From the NCBI RefSeq assembly GCF_057098645.1, contig NZ_CM169472.1: a DNA stretch of 64,000 bases; one strand, 5' to 3'. The translations under genes and the position numbers were made by a program. The number at the start of each line of letters is the position of its first letter. The stretch's first letter is position 1. Of the stretch, positions 2,352 to 29,548 are shown in pieces. Under the pieces are notes generated by a model. That model made no database searches, was not told the origin of the DNA, and worked only from the letters and a program-made list of their open reading frames with translations.

Positions 2352-3674
2352 ATGAGTGCGTTAAGGGATGAAGTATCTATGAAGGTTGCGTTCTCTAATG
2401 GCATGATAAACAAATTATGCAAAAGTTTTTTTTATAGTCATGGTAAGGAGCAGCCTTGTATTCAAGTCGGTAAAGCATTAGAAGATTTTGTTTTTTGGCT
2501 TGCATATAATGATGAGGAGATTGCAAAATGTGCTAGTAGGTTATTAAAAGCATATGGCCCCCAATTAGGTATAAGTAACCTTCATAATGCGAAAAGATTA
2601 TTGTTAGGTTTTTGTTCTGAAGCCTTCAATCGCATTGATGCTGATTTTTTGTCGCTTAATCCTGATAAGATTTGTGTTGATGATATTATAACGCAAGTTC
2701 ATAGAAAAAATCTTAGTGAGATGTTTAAGTGTTATATACTTTCACGAATAAAATCCTGTCCATATATTTATAATCTTGGGTGTGCTGGCTTTGATGGGAA
2801 GCTTGAGCTTAGAGAAAATTTATTTTTATATGGCCCGGGGCTAGGGGTGGAATTACTTTCTGATATTAAAGACAAAACTGACATCAAGGTTCCTGTTGAT
2901 TTTTATGATGATGAATATATGCGGCATAAACCAATTGGGAAATATTTTCGACAGTCAAAATCCTGCTTGGTGGTGGCATATGCTTCATCAGAGGATAAAG
3001 CGGTGAAAATGTTTGATAGTTTGTTTGGAGCTTTATGTCTTGCAGTTGATAATCCTTTTGCGATTAATCGAGTTGCTGTTAATAATCTAGTTGAGTCTTT
3101 TGGTGTCGGGAAATATCATGAAAGTGAGTTTCGGGTGAATATTCCGTCTGTAAATAATTTAAATATAACGGATTCAACCTTGGCGATACTTACAAAAATA
3201 CTTTCATCACCTGATAAAAGGATGTTGTCTGCTCTTTCCTTTATAGCGCACGGGTGGAGAGATGACAAACGTGAAAGGTTTTTGAATCAATTTATAGCAT
3301 TGGATGCTATGTATGGAACCAATAATGGTAATAAAAATTCAATTATTGGCGGTGTTTGCAGAGATGCGGCGAAAATTATTGATATTGATTCAAAAATAGG
3401 AATAATCTATGAGCTTAGGTGTAAGTTTGTTCATGGAGATATTTCATCGTTATCTGATAATGATAGCTATCGAAAGTTTATTGATAGCTATGGCGTGGAC
3501 CCTATTGTTTCTCTTTTTGAAATTCTTAAAGAATGCGTCCTTAATTATAATGGTACTTACAAAACGCCAAAAGATGTTGGAAAGGCAGATAGGTCTATTT
3601 GCGTTCCTGCTGAGTTGCTTCCAGCGGTTGAGAGGATGATAGCGGAATACAGTGGAGTTAAAAAAACAAACTAA
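2352..3674 (+). CDS. hypothetical protein; AT-rich cargo gene at the tin/old position of P2; candidate anti-phage defence protein with C-terminal Rx4H (HEPN-like) motif
   Basis: 440-aa ORF, visibly AT-rich and Lys/Ile/Asn-rich unlike flanking phage genes; motif R356-CKFV-H361-GD; sits between gene A and cos. Confidence 0.75.
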   Translation: MSALRDEVSMKVAFSNGMINKLCKSFFYSHGKEQPCIQVGKALEDFVFWLAYNDEEIAKCASRLLKAYGPQLGISNLHNAKRLLLGFCSEAFNRIDADFLSLNPDKICVDDIITQVHRKNLSEMFKCYILSRIKSCPYIYNLGCAGFDGKLELRENLFLYGPGLGVELLSDIKDKTDIKVPVDFYDDEYMRHKPIGKYFRQSKSCLVVAYASSEDKAVKMFDSLFGALCLAVDNPFAINRVAVNNLVESFGVGKYHESEFRVNIPSVNNLNITDSTLAILTKILSSPDKRMLSALSFIAHGWRDDKRERFLNQFIALDAMYGTNNGNKNSIIGGVCRDAAKIIDIDSKIGIIYELRCKFVHGDISSLSDNDSYRKFIDSYGVDPIVSLFEILKECVLNYNGTYKTPKDVGKADRSICVPAELLPAVERMIAEYSGVKKTN

Positions 3675-6983: not shown

Positions 6984-7838
6984 ATGGCAAAAAAAGTCTC
7001 AAAATTCTTTCGTATCGGCGTTGAGGGTGACACCTGTGACGGGCGTGTCATCAGTGCGCAGGATATTCAGGAAATGGCCGAAACCTTTGACCCGCGAGTC
7101 TATGGTTGCCGCATTAACCTGGAACATCTGCGCGGCATCCTGCCTGACGGTATTTTTAAGCGTTATGGCGATGTGGCCGAACTGAAGGCCGAAAAGATTG
7201 ACGATGATTCGGCGCTGAAAGGCAAATGGGCGCTGTTTGCGAAAATCACCCCGACCGATGACCTTATCGCGATGAACAAGGCCGCGCAGAAGGTCTATAC
7301 CTCAATGGAAATTCAGCCGAATTTTGCCAATACCGGCAAATGTTATCTGGTGGGGCTGGCCGTCACCGATGACCCGGCAAGCCTCGGCACGGAATACCTG
7401 GAATTCTGCCGCACGGCAAAACACAACCCTCTGAACCGCTTCAAATTAAGCCCTGAAAACCTGATTTCAGTGGCAACGCCTGTTGAGCTGGAATTTGAAG
7501 ACCTGCCTGAAACCGTGTTCACCGCCCTGACTGAAAAGGTGAAATCCATTTTTGGCCGCAAACAGGCCAGCGATGACGCCCGTCTGAATGACGTGCATGA
7601 AGCGGTGACCGCTGTTGCTGAACATGTGCAGGAAAAACTGAGCGCCACTGAGCAGCGCCTCGCTGAGATGGAAAACGCCTTTTCCGCACTTAAGCAGGAG
7701 GTGACTGACAGGGCGGATGAAACCAGCCAGGCATTCACCCGCCTGAAAAACAGTCTCGACCACACCGAAAGTCTGACCCAGCAGCGCCGCAGCAAGGCCA
7801 CCGGCGGTGGCGGTGACGCCCTGATGACGAACTGCTGA
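6984..7838 (+). CDS. O: capsid scaffolding protein (P2 gpO-like)
   Basis: ORF track 6918..7838; start trimmed to MAKKVSKFF; Ala/Glu-rich coiled-coil C-terminus; synteny. Confidence 0.88.
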   Translation: MAKKVSKFFRIGVEGDTCDGRVISAQDIQEMAETFDPRVYGCRINLEHLRGILPDGIFKRYGDVAELKAEKIDDDSALKGKWALFAKITPTDDLIAMNKAAQKVYTSMEIQPNFANTGKCYLVGLAVTDDPASLGTEYLEFCRTAKHNPLNRFKLSPENLISVATPVELEFEDLPETVFTALTEKVKSIFGRKQASDDARLNDVHEAVTAVAEHVQEKLSATEQRLAEMENAFSALKQEVTDRADETSQAFTRLKNSLDHTESLTQQRRSKATGGGGDALMTNC

Positions 7839-7892
7839 CCGGCGTCAGTCCGGGAAAACCTTCACGATTAACCCTTAATTTCAGGAAAAACT

Positions 7893-8966
7893 ATGCGCCA
7901 GGAAACCCGCTTTAAATTTAATGCCTACCTGTCCCGTGTTGCCGAACTGAACGGCATCGACGCCGGTGATGTGTCGAAAAAATTCACCGTTGAACCGTCG
8001 GTCACCCAGACCCTGATGAACACCATGCAGGAGTCCTCTGACTTTCTGACCCGCATCAACATTGTGCCGGTCAGCGAAATGAAAGGGGAAAAAATTGGTA
8101 TTGGTGTCACCGGCTCCATCGCCAGCACCACAGACACCGCCGGTGGCACCGAGCGTCAGCCGAAGGACTTCTCGAAGCTGGCGTCAAACAAGTACGAATG
8201 CGACCAGATTAACTTCGATTTTTATATCCGCTACAAAACGCTTGACCTGTGGGCGCGTTATCAGGATTTCCAGCTCCGTGTCCGTAACGCCATTATCAAA
8301 CGCCAGTCCCTTGATTTAATCATGGCCGGTTTTAACGGCGTGAGGCGTGCCGAAACCTCTGACCGCAGCAGTAACCAGATGCTGCAGGATGTGGCGGTCG
8401 GCTGGCTGCAGAAATACCGCAATGAAGCCACGGCGCGCGTGATGAGCAAGGTTACTGACGAGGAAGGTCACACGACCTCTGAGGTCATCCGCGTGGGTAA
8501 GGGCGGTGATTATGCCAGCCTCGATGCACTGGTGATGGATGCGACCAACAACCTGATTGAGCCGTGGTATCAGGAAGACCCTGACCTTGTGGTGATTGTG
8601 GGGCGTCAGCTACTGGCGGACAAGTATTTCCCCATCGTCAACAAGGAGCAGGACAACAGCGAGATGCTGGCCGCTGACGTCATCATCAGCCAGAAACGCA
8701 TCGGCAACCTGCCAGCGGTACGCGTCCCGTACTTCCCGGCGGATGCGATGCTCATCACGAAGCTGGAAAACCTGTCCATCTACTACATGGATGACAGCCA
8801 TCGTCGCGTGATTGTGGAAAACCCGAAACTCGACCGCGTGGAGAACTACGAGTCAATGAACATTGATTACGTGGTGGAAGACTACGCCGCCGGTTGTCTG
8901 GTGGAAAAAATTAAGGTCGGTGACTTCTCCACACCGACTAAAGTGACCGCAGAGCCGGGAGCGTAA
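7893..8966 (+). CDS. N: major capsid protein (P2 gpN-like)
   Basis: 357-aa ORF, same length as P2 N; synteny. Confidence 0.93.
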   Translation: MRQETRFKFNAYLSRVAELNGIDAGDVSKKFTVEPSVTQTLMNTMQESSDFLTRINIVPVSEMKGEKIGIGVTGSIASTTDTAGGTERQPKDFSKLASNKYECDQINFDFYIRYKTLDLWARYQDFQLRVRNAIIKRQSLDLIMAGFNGVRRAETSDRSSNQMLQDVAVGWLQKYRNEATARVMSKVTDEEGHTTSEVIRVGKGGDYASLDALVMDATNNLIEPWYQEDPDLVVIVGRQLLADKYFPIVNKEQDNSEMLAADVIISQKRIGNLPAVRVPYFPADAMLITKLENLSIYYMDDSHRRVIVENPKLDRVENYESMNIDYVVEDYAAGCLVEKIKVGDFSTPTKVTAEPGA

Positions 8967-10528: not shown

Positions 10529-10810
10529 ATGACAGCAGAAGAAAAAAGCGTCCTGTCGCTTTTCATGATTGGGGTGCTGATTGTTGTCGGCAAGGTGCTT
10601 GCCGGTGGTGAACCCATCACCCCGCGTCTGTTTATCGGGCGCATGTTGCTCGGTGGTTTTGTCTCGATGGTTGCCGGTGTTGTTCTGGTGCAGTTTCCTG
10701 ACCTGTCACTGCCTGCGGTGTGCGGCATCGGCTCCATGCTGGGTATCGCCGGTTATCAGGTGATTGAGATTGCCATTCAGCGCCGCTTTAAGGGCAGGGG
10801 GAAACAGTAA
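10529..10810 (+). CDS. Y: holin (P2 gpY-like)
   Basis: 93-aa ORF with hydrophobic helices, immediately upstream of the lysozyme gene. Confidence 0.85.
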   Translation: MTAEEKSVLSLFMIGVLIVVGKVLAGGEPITPRLFIGRMLLGGFVSMVAGVVLVQFPDLSLPAVCGIGSMLGIAGYQVIEIAIQRRFKGRGKQ

Positions 10811-11733
10811 TGCCGGTAATTAACACGCATCAGAATATCGCCGCCTTTCTCGACATGCTGGCGGTGTCCGAAGGGACGGCAAATCATCCGCTGACGAAAA
10901 ACCGGGGCTATGACGTGATAGTCACCGGACTGGACGGGAAGCCGGAAATCTTCACCGACTACAGTGACCACCCGTTCGCGCATGGCCGACCGGCGAAGGT
11001 GTTTAACCGTCGCGGTGAAAAGTCCACGGCCTCCGGTCGCTATCAGCAGCTTTACCTGTTCTGGCCGCACTACCGCAAACAGCTTGCCCTGCCGGATTTC
11101 AGTCCGTTGTCACAGGACAGACTCGCCATTCAGTTGATCCGCGAACGCGGTGCACTGGATGACATCCGGGCGGGACGCATTGAGCGCGCCATTTCACGCT
11201 GTCGCAATATCTGGGCGTCCCTGCCGGGTGCCGGTTACGGTCAGCGTGAGCATTCACTGGAAAAACTGGTCACCGTCTGGCGTACCGGCTTAAACGGAGT
11301 AAACACCATGAAGAAATTATCCCTTTCACTGATGCTGAATGTGTCGCTGGCGCTGATGCTGGCACTGTCACTGATTTACCCGCAGAGCGTGGCCGTCAGT
11401 TTTGTCGCTGCCTGGGCGATTCTGGCGACGGTTATCTGTGTGGTTGCCGGTGGTGTCGGCGTGTATGCCACTGAGTATGTACTTGAGCGCTACGGACGGG
11501 AGCTGCCGCCGGAATCGCTGGCCGTGAAGATTGTCACGTCGCTGTTTTTGCAGCCGGTGCCGTGGTGCAGACGGGCGGCGGGTCTGGTGGTGATGGTGGC
11601 GACGTTTATCTCGCTGGTCGCTGCCGGGTGGATTTTTACTGCACTGATTTATCTCGTGGCGTCGCTGTTTTTCCGGCTGATACGTAAAGCCTGTCGTCAG
11701 CGTTTTGAGGGGCGGGAACTATGTCAAAGCTGA
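10810..11733 (+). CDS. K: endolysin (P2 K-like lysozyme) reading through in frame into a LysA-like membrane domain (307 aa)
   Basis: N-terminal ~165 aa look like P2 K lysozyme; no stop codon before the LysA-like MKKLSLSLMLNV... segment in the same frame. Confidence 0.7.
   Translation: MPVINTHQNIAAFLDMLAVSEGTANHPLTKNRGYDVIVTGLDGKPEIFTDYSDHPFAHGRPAKVFNRRGEKSTASGRYQQLYLFWPHYRKQLALPDFSPLSQDRLAIQLIRERGALDDIRAGRIERAISRCRNIWASLPGAGYGQREHSLEKLVTVWRTGLNGVNTMKKLSLSLMLNVSLALMLALSLIYPQSVAVSFVAAWAILATVICVVAGGVGVYATEYVLERYGRELPPESLAVKIVTSLFLQPVPWCRRAAGLVVMVATFISLVAAGWIFTALIYLVASLFFRLIRKACRQRFEGRELCQS
11308..11733 (+). CDS. lysA: LysA-like membrane protein (possible internal in-frame start within the K reading frame)
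   Basis: ATG at 11308 in frame gives 141 aa, the length I recall for P2 LysA; hydrophobic segments. Confidence 0.5.
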   Translation: MKKLSLSLMLNVSLALMLALSLIYPQSVAVSFVAAWAILATVICVVAGGVGVYATEYVLERYGRELPPESLAVKIVTSLFLQPVPWCRRAAGLVVMVATFISLVAAGWIFTALIYLVASLFFRLIRKACRQRFEGRELCQS

Positions 11734-12291: not shown

Positions 12292-12721
12292 TGCCGTCAC
12301 GGTGCTGAAAACCAGCCCCGAGATGCTGCGGATATTCGTGGATAACGGGAGTATTGCCTCCACACTGGCGACGTCACTGTCATTCGAAAAGCGTTACACG
12401 CTCAATGTCATTGTGACCGATTTTACCGATGATTTTGACCTGCTCATCGTGCCGGTGCTGGCGTGGCTGCGGGAAAATCAGCCCGACATCATGACCACCG
12501 ACGAAGGTCAGAAAAAGGGCTTCACGTTTTATGCAGACATCAACAATGACAGCAGCTTTGATATCAGCATCAGCCTGATGCTGACCGAGCGCACGCTGGT
12601 CAGTGAGGTGGACGGCGCACTGCATGTGAAGAATATCCCGGAACCCCCGCCGCCGGAGCCGGTCACCCGCCCGATGGAGCTGTATATCAATGGCGAACTG
12701 GTGAGCAAGTGGGATGAATGA
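12254..12721 (+). CDS. R: tail completion protein (P2 gpR-like)
   Basis: 155-aa ORF, same length as P2 R; synteny. Confidence 0.88.
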   Translation: MLKPDSLRRALTDAVTVLKTSPEMLRIFVDNGSIASTLATSLSFEKRYTLNVIVTDFTDDFDLLIVPVLAWLRENQPDIMTTDEGQKKGFTFYADINNDSSFDISISLMLTERTLVSEVDGALHVKNIPEPPPPEPVTRPMELYINGELVSKWDE

Positions 12722-13163
12722 GTTTAAGCGTTTTGAAGACCGGCTGACCGGAATGATTGAGTCGCTGTCACCGTCAGGGCGTCGGCGACTGGCGGTAGAT
12801 ATTGCGAAGAAACTGCGCCAGCGCCAGCAGCAGCGAATTAAATTACAAAAAGGCCCGGATGGTACGCCGTATGTACCGAGAAAAAACCAACCAGTGCGAA
12901 ATAAGAAAGGCCGGATAAAGCGGGAAATGTTTGTGAAATTACGCACTAACCGGTTTATGAAAGCAACAGCTAGCGAGAGTGCGGCGGTGGTGGAGTTTAC
13001 TGGTAAGGTTGAGTGTATTGCGAGAGTACATCAATTTGGGTTGGCTGATAAGCCTAGTTACAACAGTAAGGCTGTGGTTTATCCTGTTCGTATACTTATG
13101 GGAATCTCAGAGCGTGATACGAAATTTGTTGAAGAAGTTATTATTCGCTACCTATCTCATTAG
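12714..13163 (+). CDS. S: tail completion protein (P2 gpS-like); 3' two-thirds is AT-rich and looks mosaic
   Basis: 149-aa ORF starting MNEFKRFEDRLTG; synteny; composition shift near 12830. Confidence 0.85.
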   Translation: MNEFKRFEDRLTGMIESLSPSGRRRLAVDIAKKLRQRQQQRIKLQKGPDGTPYVPRKNQPVRNKKGRIKREMFVKLRTNRFMKATASESAAVVEFTGKVECIARVHQFGLADKPSYNSKAVVYPVRILMGISERDTKFVEEVIIRYLSH

Positions 13164-13213
13164 GGACGATGAAAATATAGTTTCATCAGCTATATTCTAG
13201 TATATAAAATACT

Positions 13214-13238
13214 AAGGCTACACTAGCCGTGTAGCCTT
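13214..13238. terminator. bidirectional intrinsic terminator between convergent S and the cargo NTPase gene
   Basis: perfect 10-bp stem AAGGCTACAC / GTGTAGCCTT with 5-nt loop, flanked by A/T-rich runs on both sides. Confidence 0.6.
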
Positions 13239-13263
13239 AGTATATGTTTGGGATATTATATAA

Positions 13264-14508
13264 CTAAATCCAGCGAAGGTAGAATAGTAAGTAAGGATCT
13301 CTGATGTCTAATACATCGCTTTCTTGATCCCACTCGATAATACTGCTATTTGCAGCATCGTTGGCAATAGCAGTTGAGTGCTGACATGCACTGGTTATAC
13401 TAGAACCGCTTGGGCTATCGCCATGACATAACGAGGTCACTCGAGATACTAAGTCAGAATAACGAAATGTCAGCGTCGGAGGATTAGAAGCAATGGCTTT
13501 TAATAAAAAGACATAAACATCGCCTTGCCAGCCATCTTTTGATATATATGATTTTCTATCAGAACCACGCACTTTAGGTCCTTCGCGCATTTTATCCACA
13601 ATCGTGCTGTAATCTGCTGACTGAAGTGTACGTTTGCACACTCTTTGCAATGTGGCAATATCTTTTTGATATTTTATTGAAGTATCAGAAGTCTCTCTGA
13701 CATTCATTTCAAAACAAGAGTTTAAGCATAAATATTGCATTAGTTGTGGTGAGCCTGCGGACTCTTTTACTAACTCACTTATAACTTCATCAGAGGCATC
13801 TATATTGAGTAGTTTGAATCCTTTCTGAGCAATAATTTTTAAGGTTGATTCATCCCAATAATCAAAATCAATATTAAATATCCGGCCTCGTAAGTCAGAG
13901 TTACCCCGAAGAACATCATCAGAATGATATGGCACTGATGCACAAATAAATTTGCAGCCATTAGCTATGGCATCTTTTATTTGTCGTGATAGTTCGGCTT
14001 GAGCTTCTTTAGCAATATAGTGAAAATCATCGATAAAGATAACATAATCTGTGTTTGCGATTTCTCGCTTCATTAGTTGAAAGAGATCTATCGCAAATGA
14101 TTCTGAGGTTTGATCTGCTGTACTATAACCAGCGGATGCAGACCCTTTAAGACTACCTTTTGCTAAAATTACACCAGCTTGGGCAGATAATTCTCCTGTA
14201 CTTGAAAATGATGAGGTGCCAGTTTTACTTTGAACTTGGGTTACTGGTACACCAAGTATGTCGAAAACGCGCTTCCATAAATCATTAGCAGATTGAACCC
14301 CTGCTCCAGTTACTTCGATTAGCCTCTGGGTTCCAAGTACTTTCTTAACAAAGACAGTTTTTCCTGATTTTGATGGGCCAGAGATAGAAATCAGCATGGT
14401 GCCCATCTCAAGTGTATCGATTAACTGTTGCTGTTTAGATACTAGGTGATCCTCAACCAGTGTGTGGTTGGGATAACCGCCTGGGATAAAAACCTCTGTC
14501 GCCTTCAT
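13264..14508 (-). CDS. hypothetical P-loop NTPase; AT-rich cargo gene between S and V; candidate anti-phage defence ATPase
   Basis: 414-aa ORF; Walker A GPSKSGKT (aa 44-51, nt 14356..14379); Walker B YVIFIDD (aa 155-161); Ser/Thr/Gly-rich insert between them; opposite strand and lower GC than the phage backbone. Confidence 0.8.
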   Translation of the reverse strand: MKATEVFIPGGYPNHTLVEDHLVSKQQQLIDTLEMGTMLISISGPSKSGKTVFVKKVLGTQRLIEVTGAGVQSANDLWKRVFDILGVPVTQVQSKTGTSSFSSTGELSAQAGVILAKGSLKGSASAGYSTADQTSESFAIDLFQLMKREIANTDYVIFIDDFHYIAKEAQAELSRQIKDAIANGCKFICASVPYHSDDVLRGNSDLRGRIFNIDFDYWDESTLKIIAQKGFKLLNIDASDEVISELVKESAGSPQLMQYLCLNSCFEMNVRETSDTSIKYQKDIATLQRVCKRTLQSADYSTIVDKMREGPKVRGSDRKSYISKDGWQGDVYVFLLKAIASNPPTLTFRYSDLVSRVTSLCHGDSPSGSSITSACQHSTAIANDAANSSIIEWDQESDVLDIRDPYLLFYLRWI

Positions 14509-14549
14509 ATATCAACGCCAACATTATTAATGGTATGCCAATTTTACGT

Positions 14550-14567
14550 TGTAAGAGGATCAATACA
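14550..14567. promoter_or_regulatory. TGT-N12-ACA dyad upstream of V (Ogr/Delta-type late activator site candidate)
   Basis: TGTAAGAGGATCAATACA in the divergent region between the cargo gene and V; spacing to the V start is shorter than expected, so tentative. Confidence 0.3.
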
Positions 14568-14614
14568 AGTTCCATTTATTGCCTGTGAGTGCTGAAAAAT
14601 TCAATATTTGAAAA

Positions 14615-15250
14615 ATGAATATAAATCACTCATTACAAGAGCTTGCGCGTGCACTGCGCAACATGATCCGCACCGGTATTATCGTCGAAACCGACCTTAA
14701 CGCCGGTCGCTGCCGTGTGCAGACCGGCGGCATGTGCACCGACTGGCTTCAGTGGCTGACCCATCGTGCCGGACGTTCGCGCACATGGTGGGCACCTTCC
14801 GTGGGGGAACAGGTGCTGATTCTGGCTGTGGGCGGTGAACTCGACACGGCGTTCGTTCTGCCGGGGATTTATTCCGGCGATAACCCCGCGCCGTCTGCGT
14901 CGGCGGATGCCCTGCATATCCGTTTCCCTGACGGGGCGGTGATTGAGTATGAACCCGAAACCAGTTCACTGACGGTAAGCGGAATTAAAACGGCCAGCGT
15001 GACGGCTTCTGATTTTGTTACTGCCACGGTGCCGGTGGTCACGGTGAAAGCATCAACCCGCGTCACCCTGGACACACCGGAGGTGGTCTGCACCAACAGG
15101 CTGATTACCGGCACGCTGGAAGTGCAGAAGGGCGGGACGATGCGCGGCAACATTGAACACACCGGCGGTGAACTCTCATCAAACGGTAAGGTACTGCATA
15201 CCCATAAACACCCCGGCGACAGTGGCGGCACAACAGGGGGACCTCTATGA
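14615..15250 (+). CDS. V: baseplate spike (P2 gpV-like)
   Basis: 211-aa ORF, same length as P2 V; synteny. Confidence 0.92.
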   Translation: MNINHSLQELARALRNMIRTGIIVETDLNAGRCRVQTGGMCTDWLQWLTHRAGRSRTWWAPSVGEQVLILAVGGELDTAFVLPGIYSGDNPAPSASADALHIRFPDGAVIEYEPETSSLTVSGIKTASVTASDFVTATVPVVTVKASTRVTLDTPEVVCTNRLITGTLEVQKGGTMRGNIEHTGGELSSNGKVLHTHKHPGDSGGTTGGPL

Positions 15251-18390: not shown

Positions 18391-18945
18391 ATGAACTCAG
18401 TATTCTTTTCACCCGGAAGTAAAAGTTTTTATCTGCAAGAATTGTTTCCAGAATATGAGGATGCGGGAACGCTTCCTGATGATGTTATTGAAATTACCCG
18501 AGAAACATATGAGCAATTTCTTGGGCTGCATCCAGAAGGGAAAGAAATTGGCGCTGACAGTTCAGGACGGCCAATATGGATTAATTCCCCGCCGCCTTCA
18601 AAAGAGGATGAGGTGCTGGCGGCTGAAATGAAAAAAATATCTTTGGTTTCAGAAGTCAATACCTACATCAATACCCATCAGTGGCCTGGCAAAGCTGCTA
18701 TTGGTCGTCTGAAAGGTGACGAGCTGGAACAATATAATTTATGGCTGGATTATCTGGACGCACTGGAACTGGTTGATACCTCCAGTGCTCCAGATTGCGT
18801 ATTCCGCTCTATTCGATCACGGATTGGCATCGAAGTCCGATCAGCGATTCGCATCCATTCGATCAACCGGGAACTTAACTTTTTCTACCGCTTTTTAACG
18901 CGTTTTTTCGCTGCTTTCCACTACCGGGGGATTTTTCCTCAGTGA
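18391..18945 (+). CDS. G: tail fibre assembly protein (gpG-like) with C-terminus replaced by IS-derived sequence
   Basis: 184-aa ORF; native sequence ends at ...DTSSAPD (nt ~18795), then reads into the IS21-family element. Confidence 0.7.
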   Translation: MNSVFFSPGSKSFYLQELFPEYEDAGTLPDDVIEITRETYEQFLGLHPEGKEIGADSSGRPIWINSPPPSKEDEVLAAEMKKISLVSEVNTYINTHQWPGKAAIGRLKGDELEQYNLWLDYLDALELVDTSSAPDCVFRSIRSRIGIEVRSAIRIHSINRELNFFYRFLTRFFAAFHYRGIFPQ

Positions 18946-19650
18946 CTCTCCCTGAAGGACCACTCGGTGTGAGTTATGTACCAGTCTGTCCAGGATGGCA
19001 TCTGCTGTTGTTGGGTTCTCCATCAGACCATGCCATTTATCTACCGGGAACTGGCTTACCACTATCGTGCTGCTTTGTCCGTAACGATCCTCTATGAGCT
19101 CCAGAAGGTCATTACACTGGGCGTTACTTAACTGTTCCAGCCCCAGATCGTCCAGGATTAGAACCTGTATTTTTTGCAACTGTTTCAGATATTTCAGCCA
19201 GCTGCCATCAACACGTCCCTGAGCCAGTTGTTCCAGTAATCGCCCGGTTCTACAGTACCGGACGCTGTGTTTCTGTCGACATGCCTGTTCGCCCAGCGCA
19301 TTGGCTATCCAGCTCTTGCCACATCCTGTCGGACCGGTTATCAGCAGGTTTTTCCTGTGGGTTATGTAGTGGCCGTTCAGCAGTTCTCTCATCTGTTCAG
19401 CCCGCAGACCTCTTGAGGCCGGATAGCGCAGCCCTTCCGGTGTTGCCTGGTATTTCAGGCCGGCATTTTTTCTCAACCGTGCCACACGGCTGTTTTCCCT
19501 GCTCAGAAGCTCGTCATCAACCAGCAGCGTCAGCCTTTCCTCGAACGACAGTTCGTCGTAGGTCTGAGGCGTTTCCCGCTGCCGTATCAGGCTCCCGGCC
19601 ATCGCCGGGAGTTTCAGTTGGGTCAGTTTGTTTAACAGGTTATCACTCAT
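18895..19650 (-). CDS. istB: IS21-family helper ATPase IstB
   Basis: Walker A GPTGCGKS, Walker B VLILDDLG; start trimmed to MSDNLLNKL within ORF-track 18895..19893. Confidence 0.9.
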   Translation of the reverse strand: MSDNLLNKLTQLKLPAMAGSLIRQRETPQTYDELSFEERLTLLVDDELLSRENSRVARLRKNAGLKYQATPEGLRYPASRGLRAEQMRELLNGHYITHRKNLLITGPTGCGKSWIANALGEQACRQKHSVRYCRTGRLLEQLAQGRVDGSWLKYLKQLQKIQVLILDDLGLEQLSNAQCNDLLELIEDRYGQSSTIVVSQFPVDKWHGLMENPTTADAILDRLVHNSHRVVLQGESLRKNPPVVESSEKTR

Positions 19651-19666
19651 ACTGTTGTTCCTTCTG

Positions 19667-21202
19667 TCAGTGGTAGTAGCCCGGACCACGCAGGTTTTCA
19701 TGCTCTGAAGCATATGCCGGATGTTGTTCGCCCTGGCGGGATAATGGAAGCTCCAGGTTCTCCCGATGGTGACGCAGCAGATTGTCGATAAAGCGTCTGT
19801 CAGGGGCGTTATAGTGCAGGGCAACGTAACAGGCCTTTTCCAGCCGTTCCGGGCCGTATTTTTTCTGAAGTGCCAGCAGCCCCAGAACTGCACGATAAGC
19901 CAGTTCCGGATGGGGTTTTGCCTTCAGCATGGATTCAACCACCCGGCCTGTGGACGGGCCCGTACGTTTTCCCTGCTCGATCAGGCGTTCCGGTGTCCAT
20001 GTCCCGTGCTGCCGGTGGCGCTCTGGCATGTGAAGCGGATTGGTTGTGTGTTTATATTCATGTGTGCTGCGCGGATGTTGCGCCACACACTGCCCCTTGT
20101 GCCAGAGCTGTACCACCGACTGCCCCGCCTTCAGTGACAGACGCTGACCGACCAGTTCGTGTGGAACGGAGTACCAGTGACGGGCATATTCAACGTGGTA
20201 GTCAGGGCCAACCTTCACAGCTTTGTATTCCGTGTATTCATAAGGTGCCAGAGGCAGCGGAGAGAGTGCTGGCGCATCCAGTATGCGGAAGCGTTCTGCA
20301 CGGGTTTGATTGCCGTACCCCTTCATTGGCCGGTTATTCATGTCTGTCAGTAACTCCCTAAGGCGCGCATTCAGCGCCCTGAGCGTGTGGAAGGTTTCAT
20401 TACGGATGCGGGCAAGAAGCCATCGTTCAACGATGAGGACGCCGTTTTCTGCTTTTGGTTTATCTTTAGGTTTGCGTGGTCGGGCCGGGATGATAACCGT
20501 GCCATAGTGCTCAGCCAGTGCCTGATAACTGTCGTTGATGACAGGCTCATATCGATCGGCCTTTTTCACTGCGCTTCTGAGGTTATCGGGGATGAGCAGC
20601 TTCGGTACGCCGCCCAGGAAGGTCAGGCAACGGCTGTGGGCATTTAACCATGACATCATGTCCTGACCTTCGCACGCTTCAACGTAGGTATAGTTGGACG
20701 CCCCCATTACGGCCACGAAGATTGCCACGCGGCGTATCTCACCGGTGTCCGGATTAATAACAGGAACCGTAGGACCACAGAAGTCGATAAAAAGCTTTTC
20801 GCCGGCACGATGCTCCTGGCGCATGGAGAGACGTCGCGTTTTTTTCCACTCCCGGTAGCAACGGCAGAAGTGCGAGTATCCCATCGCTTTGTTACCCGCC
20901 TGTGCCTTGTATTCCATCCACAACAGTTGCCGCGTCACACCTGGTTTTCTCATTTCCGTATCGAAGTACAACATGTCAGGCATTACAAGCTCTGATGCAA
21001 AGGTGTCTTTGGGCGGAAAAATGAGTTTCTCCAGCGTGTCATGGGATATATCAGCAGGTAATGGCCATGACAGAGAAGAGGCTTTGAAGCGGGCAAGAAC
21101 CTCAAAAACGGTTGAGGCGCTGATGTGTAACGTCAGTCCGATACAACGGTTAGTCAGCTTCTTGTCGAACTTGAGCTGAAGGATCTTAAAACAGGTTTCC
21201 AT
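19667..21202 (-). CDS. istA: IS21-family transposase IstA
   Basis: N-terminal HTH then DDE-type core; start trimmed to METCFKIL within ORF-track 19667..21313 (track start is a TTG). Confidence 0.88.
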   Translation of the reverse strand: METCFKILQLKFDKKLTNRCIGLTLHISASTVFEVLARFKASSLSWPLPADISHDTLEKLIFPPKDTFASELVMPDMLYFDTEMRKPGVTRQLLWMEYKAQAGNKAMGYSHFCRCYREWKKTRRLSMRQEHRAGEKLFIDFCGPTVPVINPDTGEIRRVAIFVAVMGASNYTYVEACEGQDMMSWLNAHSRCLTFLGGVPKLLIPDNLRSAVKKADRYEPVINDSYQALAEHYGTVIIPARPRKPKDKPKAENGVLIVERWLLARIRNETFHTLRALNARLRELLTDMNNRPMKGYGNQTRAERFRILDAPALSPLPLAPYEYTEYKAVKVGPDYHVEYARHWYSVPHELVGQRLSLKAGQSVVQLWHKGQCVAQHPRSTHEYKHTTNPLHMPERHRQHGTWTPERLIEQGKRTGPSTGRVVESMLKAKPHPELAYRAVLGLLALQKKYGPERLEKACYVALHYNAPDRRFIDNLLRHHRENLELPLSRQGEQHPAYASEHENLRGPGYYH

Positions 21203-21299
21203 AGTGCTCCTGGATTTTCTCTTTCTGGACATTGACGTCTCCACTGGTTTAAACACGGCAATGGAGACTGTGGTGAAAAGAGTTAATTCCCGGAGTGAC

Positions 21300-21434
21300 T
21301 GGCAGGATGCCAATCAATGATCGGAAGCATGCCAAATCGTGATCGATTGTGATGCCAAACTGTGATCGGAGATGGATGCCAAATCATGATCGATTCGAAT
21401 GCCAAACTGCGATCGATTCAGATGCCATTTTGCA
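21300..21434. repeat. tandem ~20-bp terminal repeats of the IS21-family element (transposase binding sites)
   Basis: five to six copies of GATGCCAAA(C/T)NGTGATCGAT-like units; similar units inverted at the other end (18796..18880). Confidence 0.7.
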
Positions 21435-21450
21435 CCAGATATTGAATGGC

Positions 21451-22056
21451 CTACGCCTCCGGTAGTTCAGGCCAGATGACATCCGGCGCGGTGCTGATAT
21501 CTGTTGCAGTCACCGCGTCAATGTAATCCAGCACAGCGTTAAGCCGGGTTGTTTCTGCCTGCGTCAGCTTCCGCCCGGCCTGCAATTTCAGCTGAATCAG
21601 ACTAATGGAAGCCATAGCCGCATCAATCAGTGACTGGCGCCGTACTTCTGCCGCGTCTACTGCGGCGTTATGCTGTGCCTCAGTGTCGGTCACCCATTTC
21701 TCACCATCCCATTTATCGTATGACGTTAACGGGGCGATAGTGGTTGTATTTTCAGGGTAATCACCCGGAACTGTGATTTCTTTTGATTCTCCTGTTTCGG
21801 TGCTATAGACGATTTCACCGCGATGGTCTGGCACATATTCCCATGAGTTAAAATCTGCAGAACGGCAAATTGCATAACCAGCTTTATATGAGCCAGGAGC
21901 ATCTAAACAGGAACATGCCGGGATACCGACACCCACAGCAAGATATTCAGTTGATGTGGAAATATATTCCCGTGTTTCACCATCATAATTATAAACGGTA
22001 ATGTCTCCGGCCTTTGTGGCGATGAGTTCATTATTTAATACAGCTTTACTTATCAT
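21451..22056 (-). CDS. tail fibre assembly protein, alternative copy in the invertible segment
   Basis: 201-aa ORF ending ...APDVIWPELPEA; directly downstream of the alternative fibre C-terminal cassette. Confidence 0.85.
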   Translation of the reverse strand: MISKAVLNNELIATKAGDITVYNYDGETREYISTSTEYLAVGVGIPACSCLDAPGSYKAGYAICRSADFNSWEYVPDHRGEIVYSTETGESKEITVPGDYPENTTTIAPLTSYDKWDGEKWVTDTEAQHNAAVDAAEVRRQSLIDAAMASISLIQLKLQAGRKLTQAETTRLNAVLDYIDAVTATDISTAPDVIWPELPEA

Positions 22057-22565
22057 GCAGCCCTCACAATATAATTAAAGGCGATGTTACGGGAGCGGGT
22101 TTCAGATGCTGTGCGAACTGAGCGAGATGCGTCGAATGTCCAGTTATAAGCGCCATAACCCTCAATAATTTCGGCTTCCTTTAGACCTGTAGATAATACT
22201 TGCCCATGTTGACTAAATGGCCCTGAACTAAGTACGTCTCTAAAAAGCTGGGTACGCCCAAAAGAACCAACAATATTCTGAATTGCATCATTCTGTGCAG
22301 ATAATAAGTTACGACCAGAGTCAATCCCGCGCCCATCATCCCAGCCACGAATAAATTCACCGCGTAAATCTGGTAATTTTAATGTTGGGTAAGCCTTTGC
22401 CAGATTTGGGTACTTTTCAGAAGAAAATACTGCTCCGTTACATTTTAGCCACCCCATTGGCGGAGTGGCTGAAGGCCACGGAACAGGCACACCAACCGGT
22501 AATGCAGAGCCTTCTCCCAAACCAACGTTTAAGAAAATGCAGAGATTATGTCTAACTGGCATCAT
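22053..22565 (-). CDS. alternative tail fibre C-terminal cassette (promoterless; expressed only after inversion fuses it to H)
   Basis: ORF contains the same NVGLGE junction motif as H at the crossover site; lies between the right crossover site and the alternative assembly gene. Confidence 0.75.
   Translation of the reverse strand: MMPVRHNLCIFLNVGLGEGSALPVGVPVPWPSATPPMGWLKCNGAVFSSEKYPNLAKAYPTLKLPDLRGEFIRGWDDGRGIDSGRNLLSAQNDAIQNIVGSFGRTQLFRDVLSSGPFSQHGQVLSTGLKEAEIIEGYGAYNWTFDASRSVRTASETRSRNIAFNYIVRAA
22512..22537. other. site-specific recombination (crossover) site of a Gin/Hin-family invertase, right copy
   Basis: TTCTCCCAAACC-AA-CGTTTAAGAAAA fits the TTnTCnnAAACC-nn-GGTTTnnGAnAA consensus with one mismatch; adjacent to the invertase gene. 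Confidence 0.65.
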
Positions 22566-22592
22566 CTCCGGTTTTTATTCAGGGGGATGCTC

Positions 22593-23186
22593 ATGCTTAT
22601 TGGCTATGTACGCGTGTCAACAAATGACCAGAACACGGAATTGCAGCGTAATGCGCTGGAGTGCGCAGGATGTGAGCTGATTTTTGAGGACAAAATCAGC
22701 GGCACGAAGTCCGACAGGCCGGGGCTGAAAAAACTGCTCAGAACATTATCGGAAGGTGACACTCTGGTTGTCTGGAAGCTGGACAGGCTGGGGCGTAGTA
22801 TGCGGCATCTGGTCATTCTGGTTGAGGAACTGCGCGAACGCGGCGTTAATTTTCGCAGCCTGACGGATGCTATTGATACCAGCACGCCGATGGGGCGTTT
22901 TTTCTTTCATGTGATGGGTGCCCTGGCTGAAATGGAGCGAGAACTCATTGTCGAGCGGACACGCGCCGGACTGGAAGCGGCCAGAGCCAAAGGTCGTATT
23001 GGTGGCAGACGACCGAAACTCACCGCGAGTGAGTGGGAGCAGGCCGGGCGTTTGCTGGCTGCAGGGGAGTCACGTCAACGCGTGGCACTGATTTTTGATA
23101 TTGGTCTGTCCACGCTCTATAAAAAATTTCCCTCATCAGCGACAAAGAATAAATTGTGTCATCCCTTAGCCAACCGGGACAAATAG
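22593..23186 (+). CDS. serine DNA invertase (Gin/Hin/Cin/Pin family)
   Basis: MLIGYVRVSTNDQ catalytic-serine N-terminus and C-terminal HTH; start trimmed from ORF-track 22548. Confidence 0.9.
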   Translation: MLIGYVRVSTNDQNTELQRNALECAGCELIFEDKISGTKSDRPGLKKLLRTLSEGDTLVVWKLDRLGRSMRHLVILVEELRERGVNFRSLTDAIDTSTPMGRFFFHVMGALAEMERELIVERTRAGLEAARAKGRIGGRRPKLTASEWEQAGRLLAAGESRQRVALIFDIGLSTLYKKFPSSATKNKLCHPLANRDK

Positions 23187-27905: not shown

Positions 27906-28385
27906 ATGATGCTCGCGTTAGGTATGTTTGTTTTTATGCGCCAGACGCTGCCACACCAGACCATGCAGCGTGAATCAGATTATCGCTGGCCGTCAAATTC
28001 CCGTATCGGTAAACGGGATGCCTTTCAGTTTCTCGGTGTGGGTGAGGAAAACATTACGCTTGCCGGTGTGCTTTATCCCGAACTGACCGGCGGCAAGCTG
28101 ACGATGACCACGCTCAGGCTGATGGCAGAGGAAGGTCGGGCGTGGCCGTTGCTGGATGGCACCGGCATGATTTACGGCATGTATGTCATCAGCAGGGTGA
28201 GTGAAACAGGGAGTATTTTCTTTGCAGACGGCACACCCCGAAAAATTGATTTTACGCTGTCGCTCACCCGCGTGGATGAATCACTGGCCGCGCTTTATGG
28301 CGATATCGGTAAACAGGCGGAATCGCTCATCGGTAAGGCTGGCAGTATGGCGACTAAATTCACGGGGATGACGGGGGCGGGATAA
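27906..28385 (+). CDS. U: tail protein (P2 gpU-like)
   Basis: 159-aa ORF; synteny. Confidence 0.9.
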   Translation: MMLALGMFVFMRQTLPHQTMQRESDYRWPSNSRIGKRDAFQFLGVGEENITLAGVLYPELTGGKLTMTTLRLMAEEGRAWPLLDGTGMIYGMYVISRVSETGSIFFADGTPRKIDFTLSLTRVDESLAALYGDIGKQAESLIGKAGSMATKFTGMTGAG

Positions 28386-29548
28386 TGCTGGATGCGCTGA
28401 CATTTGATGCAGGCAGTACGCTGACGCCGGATTACATGCTGATGCTCGACAGCAGGGATATTACCGGCAATATCAGCGACCGTCTGATGAGCATGACCCT
28501 GACGGATAACCGGGGCTTTGAGGCTGACCAGCTTGATATTGAACTGAACGACGCCGACGGGCAGGTAGGGCTGCCGGTTCGTGGCGCTGTCCTGACGGTG
28601 TATATCGGCTGGAAAGGTTTTGCCCTGGTATGCAAAGGGAAATTTACCGTTGATGAGGTTGAACACCGGGGCGCGCCGGATGTGGTCACCATCCGCGCCC
28701 GGAGTGCAGATTTTCGCGGGACGCTCAATTCCCGCCGGGAAGGCTCCTGGCATGACACCACGCTCGGTGCGATTGTTGAGGCGATTGCCTCCCGTAACAG
28801 GCTGGAAGCCAGTGTCGCTCCGTCACTGGCCGGAATTAAAATCCCGCACATCGATCAGTCGCAGGAGTCTGATGCGAAATTCCTGACCCGTCTAGCAGAA
28901 CGCAACGGCGGTGAGGTGTCGGTAAAAATGGGAAAACTGTTGTTTCTCAAAGCGGGGCAGGGGGTGACGGCCAGCGGTAAAAAAATCCCGCAGATTACCA
29001 TCACCCGCAGCGACGGCGACCGTCATCATTTTGCGATTGCTGACCGTGGAGCCTACACCGGCGTAACGGCAAAGTGGTTACACACCAAAGACCCGAAGCC
29101 ACAAAAGCAGAAGGTAAAACTGAAACGCAAAAAGAAAGAGAAACACCTGCGCGCACTGGAGCACCCGAAAGCGAAACCGGTCACGCAGAAGAAAGCGCCA
29201 AAAGTACCGGAAGCGCGCGAAGGTGAATACATGGCCGGTGAGGCTGACAATGTTTTTGCCCTGACCACGGTATATGCCACGAAAGCGCAGGCCATGCGCG
29301 CCGCTCAGGCGAAGTGGGACAAACTGCAACGGGGCGTCGCGGAGTTCTCCATCAGTCTGGCTACCGGTCGGGCAGATATTTACACGGAAACGCCGGTCAA
29401 AGTGTCAGGCTTTAAGCGCGTCATAGACGAGCAGGACTGGACAATCACTAAGGTGACACACTTTCTGAATAATAGCGGCTTCACGACGTCCTTGGAGCTT
29501 GAGGTCAGGCTTTCTGATGTGGAGTACGAAACAGAAGATGATGAGTGA
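28385..29548 (+). CDS. D: tail protein (P2 gpD-like, late control gene D)
   Basis: 387-aa ORF; synteny. Confidence 0.92.
   Translation: MLDALTFDAGSTLTPDYMLMLDSRDITGNISDRLMSMTLTDNRGFEADQLDIELNDADGQVGLPVRGAVLTVYIGWKGFALVCKGKFTVDEVEHRGAPDVVTIRARSADFRGTLNSRREGSWHDTTLGAIVEAIASRNRLEASVAPSLAGIKIPHIDQSQESDAKFLTRLAERNGGEVSVKMGKLLFLKAGQGVTASGKKIPQITITRSDGDRHHFAIADRGAYTGVTAKWLHTKDPKPQKQKVKLKRKKKEKHLRALEHPKAKPVTQKKAPKVPEAREGEYMAGEADNVFALTTVYATKAQAMRAAQAKWDKLQRGVAEFSISLATGRADIYTETPVKVSGFKRVIDEQDWTITKVTHFLNNSGFTTSLELEVRLSDVEYETEDDE

Follow-up and report, generated by a model that had tools for sequence, protein, structure and literature searches.

AAA+ ATPases that belong to the ORC/Cdc6 clade are recognised by a helix-extension-helix insert that follows strand 2, an arginine at the base of strand 5 and a C-terminal helical bundle (PMC12839542). 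The heptameric defence AAA+ ATPase RdrA of RADAR was likened to Cdc6 by its authors, and its insertion after beta2 forms a crown atop the ring that serves as the effector-docking surface (PMC9994260). In phage P2, genes S and V are separated by orf30, a gene of unknown function, and the orf30 position is, together with the Z-region and the TO-region, one of the three usual sites of horizontally acquired genes in P2-like phages (PMC3091744). The A/Q hotspot of these phages has been experimentally validated as a reservoir of anti-phage systems by Rousset et al. (PMC9122126), and a 2026 preprint on P2/P4 hotspots places minor defence hotspots within the P2 late genes as well. Here we analyse a gene found between S and V of an Escherichia coli P2-like prophage, in a 64,000-nucleotide stretch of contig NZ_CM169472.1 (hereafter the window). 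Structural modelling and comparative genomics indicate that its product, referred to below as the ATPase, is an ORC/Cdc6-clade AAA+ protein and a candidate for defence of the lysogen.

The gene is an intact open reading frame (ORF) with an ATG start that encodes 414 amino acids (aa), as read from its translation, and runs antisense to the flanking tail genes S (12714..13163, plus strand) and V (14615..15250, plus strand). Its GC content is 0.394, against 0.54-0.57 for the phage backbone, and the GC content of its third codon positions (GC3) is 0.294, against 0.637 for V. The original prediction of a minus-strand, lower-GC ORF between S and V at the orf30 position is thus borne out by the coordinates, the composition and the published P2 gene order (PMC3091744). 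Searches returned 1,707-1,724 homologues with alignments that span the protein from first residue to last, those at E<=1e-30 forming 364 clusters at 50% identity; this wealth of full-length homologues rules out a chance ORF and establishes a real gene. As part of the best explanation developed below, the gene is a horizontally acquired accessory gene, or 'moron', of the P2-like prophage.

A model of the monomer computed with AlphaFold2 from an alignment of 114 sequences has a mean predicted local distance difference test (pLDDT) score of 92.3 and a predicted template modelling score (pTM) of 0.85. The nearest experimental structures are the archaeal PF01637 'ATPase_2' proteins PAB2304 (PDB 2qen) and SSO1545 (PDB 2fna), followed by MuB (15.4), TnsC (14.8) and subunits of ORC and RFC; Foldseek, a check proposed at the outset, agrees with these ORC/Cdc6-type AAA+ matches. 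Searches by sequence reach less far. Pfam yields only weak matches to AAA_22, AAA_16 and ATPase_2, the NCBIfam scan returns nothing above any cutoff, and a search of PDB sequences with both the single protein and the 114-sequence profile finds only P-loop and AAA+-lid similarity. RecA matches in the latter search were set aside as an artefact of concatenated RecA chains, which sum weak P-loop matches.

Every structural hallmark of the ORC/Cdc6 clade for which we looked is present in the model: Walker motifs A and B, the helix-extension-helix insert, an arginine at position 209, and a lid followed by a winged-helix domain. Conservation was assessed in the 114-sequence alignment and in a second alignment of 14 clades. 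The Walker motifs GPSKSGKT and YVIFIDD, both recognised by the original prediction, are conserved family-wide, and D160, D161, F162, H163 and Y164 are invariant across the 14 clades. The helix-extension-helix site comprises a strand (63-67), a helix (74-85), the insert (88-140) and a second helix (142-150) that leads into the Walker B strand (156-160). The proposal that DLRGR contains an arginine finger also fits, given that R209 is invariant and immediately precedes strand 5; in the model it occupies the clade's inter-subunit arginine-finger position. The roughly 250 residues after Walker B, to which no function could initially be given, instead resolve into the remainder of the AAA+ core, a helical lid, a linker subdomain (aa 269-330) and a winged-helix domain. 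Lid residues S253, P254, L256, M257, Q258 and C261 are conserved, with weak matches to the RuvB lid, and the C-terminal helix DPY(F/L)LFYLRW ends at or beside the stop codon in nearly all members. The model thus shows a stand-alone ORC/Cdc6-clade AAA+ ATPase made up of core, helical lid and winged-helix domain.

The most distinctive element of the model is the insert, which is predicted to form a long beta-hairpin. Its length is conserved across the family (median 54 aa) and its composition is rich in Ser, Gly, Thr and Ala, yet in sequence no other segment of the protein varies as much (entropy of 3.09 bits vs 1.2-2.6 bits elsewhere). Hydrophobic residues occupy positions 101, 103, 105, 107, 109 and 111 in 40-76% of members, against 2-12% for the positions in between; on the returning strand the figures are 42-64% for positions 118, 120, 122, 124 and 126 and 3-14% for the intervening ones, while the tip (113-116) reaches 74-95%. 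Given a four-residue turn, the hydrophobic positions pair across both strands and therefore describe a ribbon of about 12 residues whose two faces differ, one being hydrophobic and the other polar and often charged. The period-2 hydrophobic moment exceeds that of composition-preserving shuffles in the tip-proximal half only (mean z=+1.9 and +1.4), the basal half having no such pattern (z about 0), and the tip itself is poorly defined in the model (pLDDT <50 at residues 111-120). An exposed ribbon of this kind would have to pack against something, for which neighbouring hairpins, a target protein or a membrane are the candidates. The hairpin is kept in most clades, including that of the A/Q hotspot, and is shortened in some (loci L048, L060 and L067), so that across the sequences compared it proves to be a module that varies and not an invariant one. 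The segment had been read as a Ser/Thr/Gly-rich low-complexity insert; the composition stands, whereas low complexity gives way to a predicted structured amphipathic hairpin of conserved length.

Coordinates of the features discussed, in window positions.
Feature	Coordinates	Strand	Evidence
ORC/Cdc6-clade AAA+ ATPase gene (main finding), 414 aa	13264..14508	-	ORF and translation
Walker A GPSKSGKT, aa 44-51	14356..14379	-	G44, K47, G49, K50 invariant (114 sequences)
Beta-hairpin insert, aa 88-140, at helix-extension-helix site	14089..14247	-	AlphaFold2 strands 92-107 and 122-137
Walker B YVIFIDD, aa 155-161, then conserved FHY	14026..14046	-	D160, D161, F162, H163, Y164 >=90%
R209, arginine-finger position (DLRGR, aa 205-209)	13882..13884	-	invariant; directly before strand 210-214 (strand 5)
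Helical lid, aa 220-268, with GSPQLMQ..C motif	13705..13851	-	helices 220-233, 240-250, 254-267
Winged-helix domain, aa 331-404, and conserved C-terminal helix DPYLLFYLRW, aa 405-413	13267..13518	-	model and alignment
Whole exchanged low-GC module: divergent 3' part of S, terminator, ATPase gene, divergent promoter region, first 6 codons of V	12795..14631		homology breakpoints
Perfect palindromic terminator, 15-bp stem, between ATPase stop codon and S	13209..13243	-	terminator scan: 15 pairs, then T-run
Putative sigma-70 promoter of the ATPase gene	14541..14568	-	-35 TTGTAT 14568-14563, 16-nt spacer, -10 TAAAAT 14546-14541
IstA	19667..21313	-	E=1e-84
IstB helper ATPase	18895..19893	-	E=2e-76

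The connection to defence begins with PADLOC, where the only library match, apart from a dismissed match to mad8 of MADS (E=1e-4, confined to the Walker B region), is to PDC-S59 (model PDLC05049, length 428; E=2.8e-31, 107 bits). The model resembles the ATPase in length and has the same single-gene architecture, and the alignment pairs aa 37-296 with model positions 37-292 of 428 (~60%). PDC-S59 is likewise the sole PADLOC match of ten other clades (E=1e-23 to 1e-36), all clades tested score 80-124 bits, and clades about 30% identical to the ATPase align to model positions 15-401. By these profile matches the ATPase is a diverged relative of PDC-S59, within a superfamily already catalogued as a candidate. 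Families of this kind were nominated on the strength of at least one member lying inside a BREX, DISARM or type I restriction-modification (RM) operon (Payne et al., 10.1101/2024.01.29.577857). No such embedding occurs among the ~70 loci that we compared, and the copy in the window lies between S and V. There is no PADLOC match to Old, GajA or AriA, which agrees with their dismissal by eye in the original prediction.

The family extends well beyond phages. In the AlphaFold Database the same fold, at template modelling (TM) scores of 0.75-0.9 and lengths of ~400-440 aa, recurs across Bacteria and in Halobacterium, Methanosarcina and Haloarcula, all entries being uncharacterised. Among phage collections, PHROGs contributes only phrog_6841, of unknown function, and the 'phages' collection a single unannotated Clostridioides phage (31% identity). 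Phage contexts were taken from 56 viral or prophage contigs, on which relatives 58-100% identical to the ATPase always lie antisense at the S/V junction of P2-like phages whose backbone proteins S, V, R, W and J are about as diverged as the ATPase. In other P2-like phages, relatives about 30% identical lie in the A/Q interval, directly beside Q. Elsewhere, an Acidithiobacillus homologue sits in an island with a SIR2-STAND gene, a HepT/MNT pair and Tn7-like genes, a Chloroflexi homologue in a region full of toxin-antitoxin modules, and another homologue in an integrase-associated island. Taken together, these data make the ATPase a reasonable defence candidate with a plausible anti-phage role. 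The original prediction of a defence ATPase, maybe a new one, therefore holds as far as candidacy is concerned, through PDC-S59, the presence in both P2 hotspots and the relative with defence neighbours, and fails as far as the protein was thought wholly new.

No conserved partner gene emerges from clustering of the neighbouring ORFs across the ~70 loci, phage backbone genes excepted, and the accompanying cargo in A/Q loci varies from locus to locus. The lack of a conserved neighbour and the occurrence of solitary chromosomal copies support action by a single gene. In one marine gammaproteobacterial locus (L002-L009), the ATPase homologue is preceded, 95 bp upstream and on the same strand, by a 300-aa gene with no Pfam match (7004..7906); this gene stands beside no other homologue and is probably not a partner. 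A 630-aa relative (P0259) has an N-terminal extension without a significant Pfam domain.

Within E. coli the gene is rare. It occurs in 11 of the 5,426 complete genomes searched, at 99.5-99.9% identity, whereas flanking R and the start of S are matched in ~1,570 genomes and the edge of V alone in ~1,000. The junction of a typical P2-like prophage (L016) is empty, with a 66-bp gap, and that of another P2-like prophage holds an unrelated 246-aa gene on the plus strand. Homology to ~1,500 other E. coli P2-like prophages ends at ~12791-12794, 80 bp into S, and restarts at ~14632, six codons into V; the foreign segment is thus larger than the 13264-14614 first assigned to it, of which the ORF itself stands, and amounts to 1.84 kb with a GC content of 0.393. 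Because these breakpoints lie inside S and V, the ATPase gene appears to move between P2-like phages by homologous exchange in the flanking tail genes. S itself is a mosaic. Its first 80 bp are 95-98% identical to the ~1,500 E. coli P2-like prophages, and the remaining 3' two-thirds (12795..13163) is a divergent allele (GC 0.442 vs 0.556) that travels with the ATPase gene, which implies that exchange of the cargo module takes along part of a tail-completion gene that is essential.

Control signals in the module point to a separate transcription unit. The sigma-70-like site upstream of the ORF, which we infer to be the ATPase promoter, went unflagged in a consensus scan because its -35 element matches only three of six positions; the pattern TTGT...ACAACG-TAnnnT is kept in ~5 diverged S/V loci, whose intergenic regions are otherwise 43% identical. 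A TGT-N12-ACA dyad (14550..14567) overlaps the putative -35 element in the ATPase/V intergenic region. It is centred ~56 bp upstream of the V start codon and retained in several diverged S/V loci, and a near-match, TGT-N12-ACC, lies at equal distance in the empty junction (L016 3915..3932). TGT-N12-ACA is the consensus for the sites at which Ogr/Delta activates P2 late promoters. In the window perfect copies are not enriched (12 found vs 16 expected by chance), and its other late-promoter regions have no match to the dyad. The conserved intergenic element fits the -35/-10 of the ATPase gene and an Ogr-dependent P_V promoter equally well, or both.

The annotation of the otherwise near-identical prophage of E. 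coli strain 258E lists late-control gene D (L001 33896..35059) as a pseudogene that contains an internal stop, so the carriers of the ATPase include at least one probably defective prophage. The corresponding ORF in the window (28385..29548) is intact.

We consider the ATPase to be a stand-alone accessory AAA+ switch, probably with an anti-phage role. The best explanation as a whole, in which we place middling confidence, is a moron-encoded, stand-alone ORC/Cdc6-clade switch whose most likely role would be to protect the lysogen, as a single gene, from phages and other mobile genetic elements (MGEs). Transcription of the gene would start at its own promoter and run against the late tail operon, with a strong terminator as insulation, an arrangement through which the protein could be made in the lysogen. 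As in switches of the ORC/Cdc6/STAND type, the ATPase would remain a monomer until an incoming phage or another mobile element supplied the trigger for ATP-dependent oligomerisation through R209. Hairpins leaving the same face of each core would then cluster into a crown. Given the hydrophobic tip and the single hydrophobic face that hairpins have family-wide, this crown is the likely element of output or contact, and it would stop infection by gripping a target protein or by entering the inner membrane.

A bolder version, an 'AAA+ resistosome' in which the hairpins form a membrane-inserting beta-barrel, seems to us distinctly unlikely. Here a sensed infection would drive ATP-dependent assembly of a ring whose six or seven hairpins build a 12-14-stranded barrel in the inner membrane, so that the cell is killed or arrested by abortive infection. 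Sensor, switch and pore effector would then be combined in one 414-aa protein, with the effector built into the helix-extension-helix insert of the clade. To our knowledge, no AAA+ protein has been described as a one-protein sensor, switch and pore.

Several considerations weigh against an anti-phage function. The partial coverage of PDC-S59 at 107 bits places the ATPase in a sister clade and not among the core members, the PDCs are a list of 145 candidates that their authors call 'untested' (Payne et al. 2024, bioRxiv 10.1101/2024.01.29.577857), and PDC-S59 goes unmentioned in the literature, supplements of the PDC paper included. Many homologues stand alone between housekeeping genes, for example beside parC/parE or after uvrA, without defence neighbours. 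The co-divergence of close relatives with P2-like backbones at one and the same junction would also be expected of a gene intrinsic to the phage. Oligomerisation, trigger and output are all things that we infer from a model of the monomer. Finally, since the hairpin is shortened in some distant clades, it is no universal effector, and on the same sequence comparison the shortening argues against a pore as the family-wide mechanism.

The co-divergence just described leaves room for an explanation intrinsic to the phage, under which the protein would be an accessory remodelling ATPase of tail or baseplate assembly, replication or lysogeny control in a single P2-like lineage, or else a superinfection-exclusion or anti-P4-satellite factor confined to P2-type phages. 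The invariable antisense placement at S/V with similarly diverged S, V, R, W and J suggests long vertical residence, not rapid turnover, and the 105-bp divergent control region that contains the TGT-N12-ACA dyad is shared with late gene V. We nevertheless regard a phage-intrinsic role as unlikely, given 11 carriers against ~1,570 E. coli genomes with the flanking genes, the empty junction of L016, a family that is common outside phages and in Archaea, and distant relatives in the A/Q cargo hotspot. Homology to a phage morphogenesis ATPase, named beforehand as a finding that would speak against defence, was sought in PHROGs, where no morphogenesis family and only phrog_6841 was matched.

Resemblance to Orc1/Cdc6, MuB and TnsC raises the further prospect of a DNA-binding initiator or loader that polymerises on DNA and marks, blocks or hijacks replication or transposition targets, with contact to DNA made by the winged-helix domain and the insert. 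Charge speaks otherwise: net charge is nil in the hairpin, negative in the acidic winged-helix domain (family mean -3, query -5) and ~-6 over the protein as a whole, which argues against DNA-gripping by either element. Moreover, the hydrophobic tip and face would be atypical of an element that binds the DNA backbone, and no transposase or replication gene is a conserved neighbour; we judge this role improbable. A selfish or addiction-type gene, without benefit to host or phage, kept by mobility and possible toxicity and tolerated at the boundaries of transcription units, would explain why solitary copies occupy many unrelated chromosomal sites at 55-60% identity across phyla, a pattern that implies frequent transfer, and would suit the low GC content, the putative promoter and the terminator. 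Yet the gene has no mobility gene or repeat of its own, the E. coli module moving instead by homologous exchange in S and V, and strong purifying selection on the catalytic and C-terminal motifs across >1,700 members implies a selected biochemical function. A selfish gene is accordingly an explanation that we hold to be very doubtful.

The original prediction also raised joint action of the ATPase with the gene at 2352..3674 (plus strand), a 440-aa A/Q cargo gene of GC content 0.351 that RefSeq annotates as 'HEPN domain-containing protein' and that has no PADLOC or NCBIfam match. This proposal finds no support. The HEPN-annotated gene occurs in 45 of the 5,426 E. coli genomes, with no ATPase carrier among the 25 listed, and in strain 258E the ATPase is paired with a different A/Q gene, encoding DUF4238; the two genes therefore assort independently. 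By its location in the validated P2 anti-phage hotspot, the 2352..3674 gene may be regarded as a defence candidate itself.

Three other features of the prophage deserve mention. At ~11278, within the plus-strand ORF 10810..11733, a 14-bp deletion relative to the prophage of strain 258E falls in the short repeat GGCGTACCG, where the endolysin gene K has its 3' end. As a result K continues in frame into the lysA-like membrane-protein ORF downstream, and a product of 307 aa stands in place of one of 165 aa and a separate gene; the lysis cassette may thus be altered or defective. An element of the IS21 family of insertion sequences (18895..21313, minus strand) separates the tail-fibre assembly gene G from the sheath gene FI in the P2 Z/fun region, and a PADLOC DrmD match of its IstB looks spurious. 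A serine recombinase or invertase-like gene (22548..23186, plus strand) has its best NCBIfam matches among XisF and Mpi-type invertases. Beside it lie two ORFs in inverted orientation (21451..22056 and 22053..22565, minus strand), neither of which matches any family, and the arrangement at 21451..23186 resembles, by analogy, an invertible tail-fibre segment of the kind used for host-range switching.

An uncharacterised ATPase in a P2 cargo site will not surprise a specialist; its value lies in the breadth of the family, its presence in two P2 hotspots and its unusual hairpin, the one feature that could lift the protein beyond a catalogued candidate. Were a defence function to prove true, it would validate a family of >1,700 sequences in 364 clusters of Bacteria and Archaea, PDC-S59 included, and the S/V (orf30) junction would become a P2 defence locus beside the A/Q hotspot. 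The ATPase would then rank with the smallest immune switches of ORC/Cdc6 type and, as it lacks any recognisable enzymatic effector, would raise the question of how so bare an AAA+ module can stop a phage, for which the amphipathic hairpin offers a mutable handle. Were the gene not to act in defence, it would still encode a conserved mobile ATPase that annotation pipelines label merely 'ATP-binding protein'.

Several known systems were compared with the ATPase. PAB2304 and SSO1545 share only 14-18% sequence identity with it and are likewise uncharacterised in function, and we found no functional study of either protein or of PF01637 in the literature. Orc1/Cdc6 and the BREX proteins BrxC/BrxD have a helical extension where the ATPase has a long amphipathic beta-hairpin, and the ATPase differs from them also by its acidic winged helix-turn-helix domain; with respect to BREX, moreover, no BREX partner genes lie beside it and its 414 aa compare with 1,200-1,300 aa for BrxC. 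The ABC ATPase and TOPRIM proteins OLD, GajA and AriA were rejected on the grounds of no PADLOC, Pfam or NCBIfam match, an AAA+ and not an ABC fold, and no partner gene. The transposition regulators TnsC, MuB, TniB and IstB were rejected because no transposase accompanies the ATPase.

STAND NTPases such as Avs, NLRs and MalT carry a C-terminal repeat or sensor domain, an N-terminal effector domain or both, flanking the NOD module. The ATPase has neither, its N-terminus being 36 aa long and the protein ending at aa 414 directly after the winged-helix domain, in keeping with family lengths of ~400-440 aa. PF01637 and Cdc6 proteins match it better than any STAND structure does. The lack of sensor and effector domains, together with an invariant arginine at the AAA+ finger position, leads us to reject strict STAND membership. 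The stems of beta-barrel pore-formers such as aerolysin and alpha-haemolysin are Ser/Thr/Gly-rich amphipathic hairpins of bilayer-spanning length, which the predicted hairpin resembles in these respects: along ~12 residues of each strand, hydrophobic positions take turns with polar ones, the two strands are in register, and the tip too is hydrophobic. For the possible role of the hairpin, the best precedent is RdrA, whose insertion occupies the same site.

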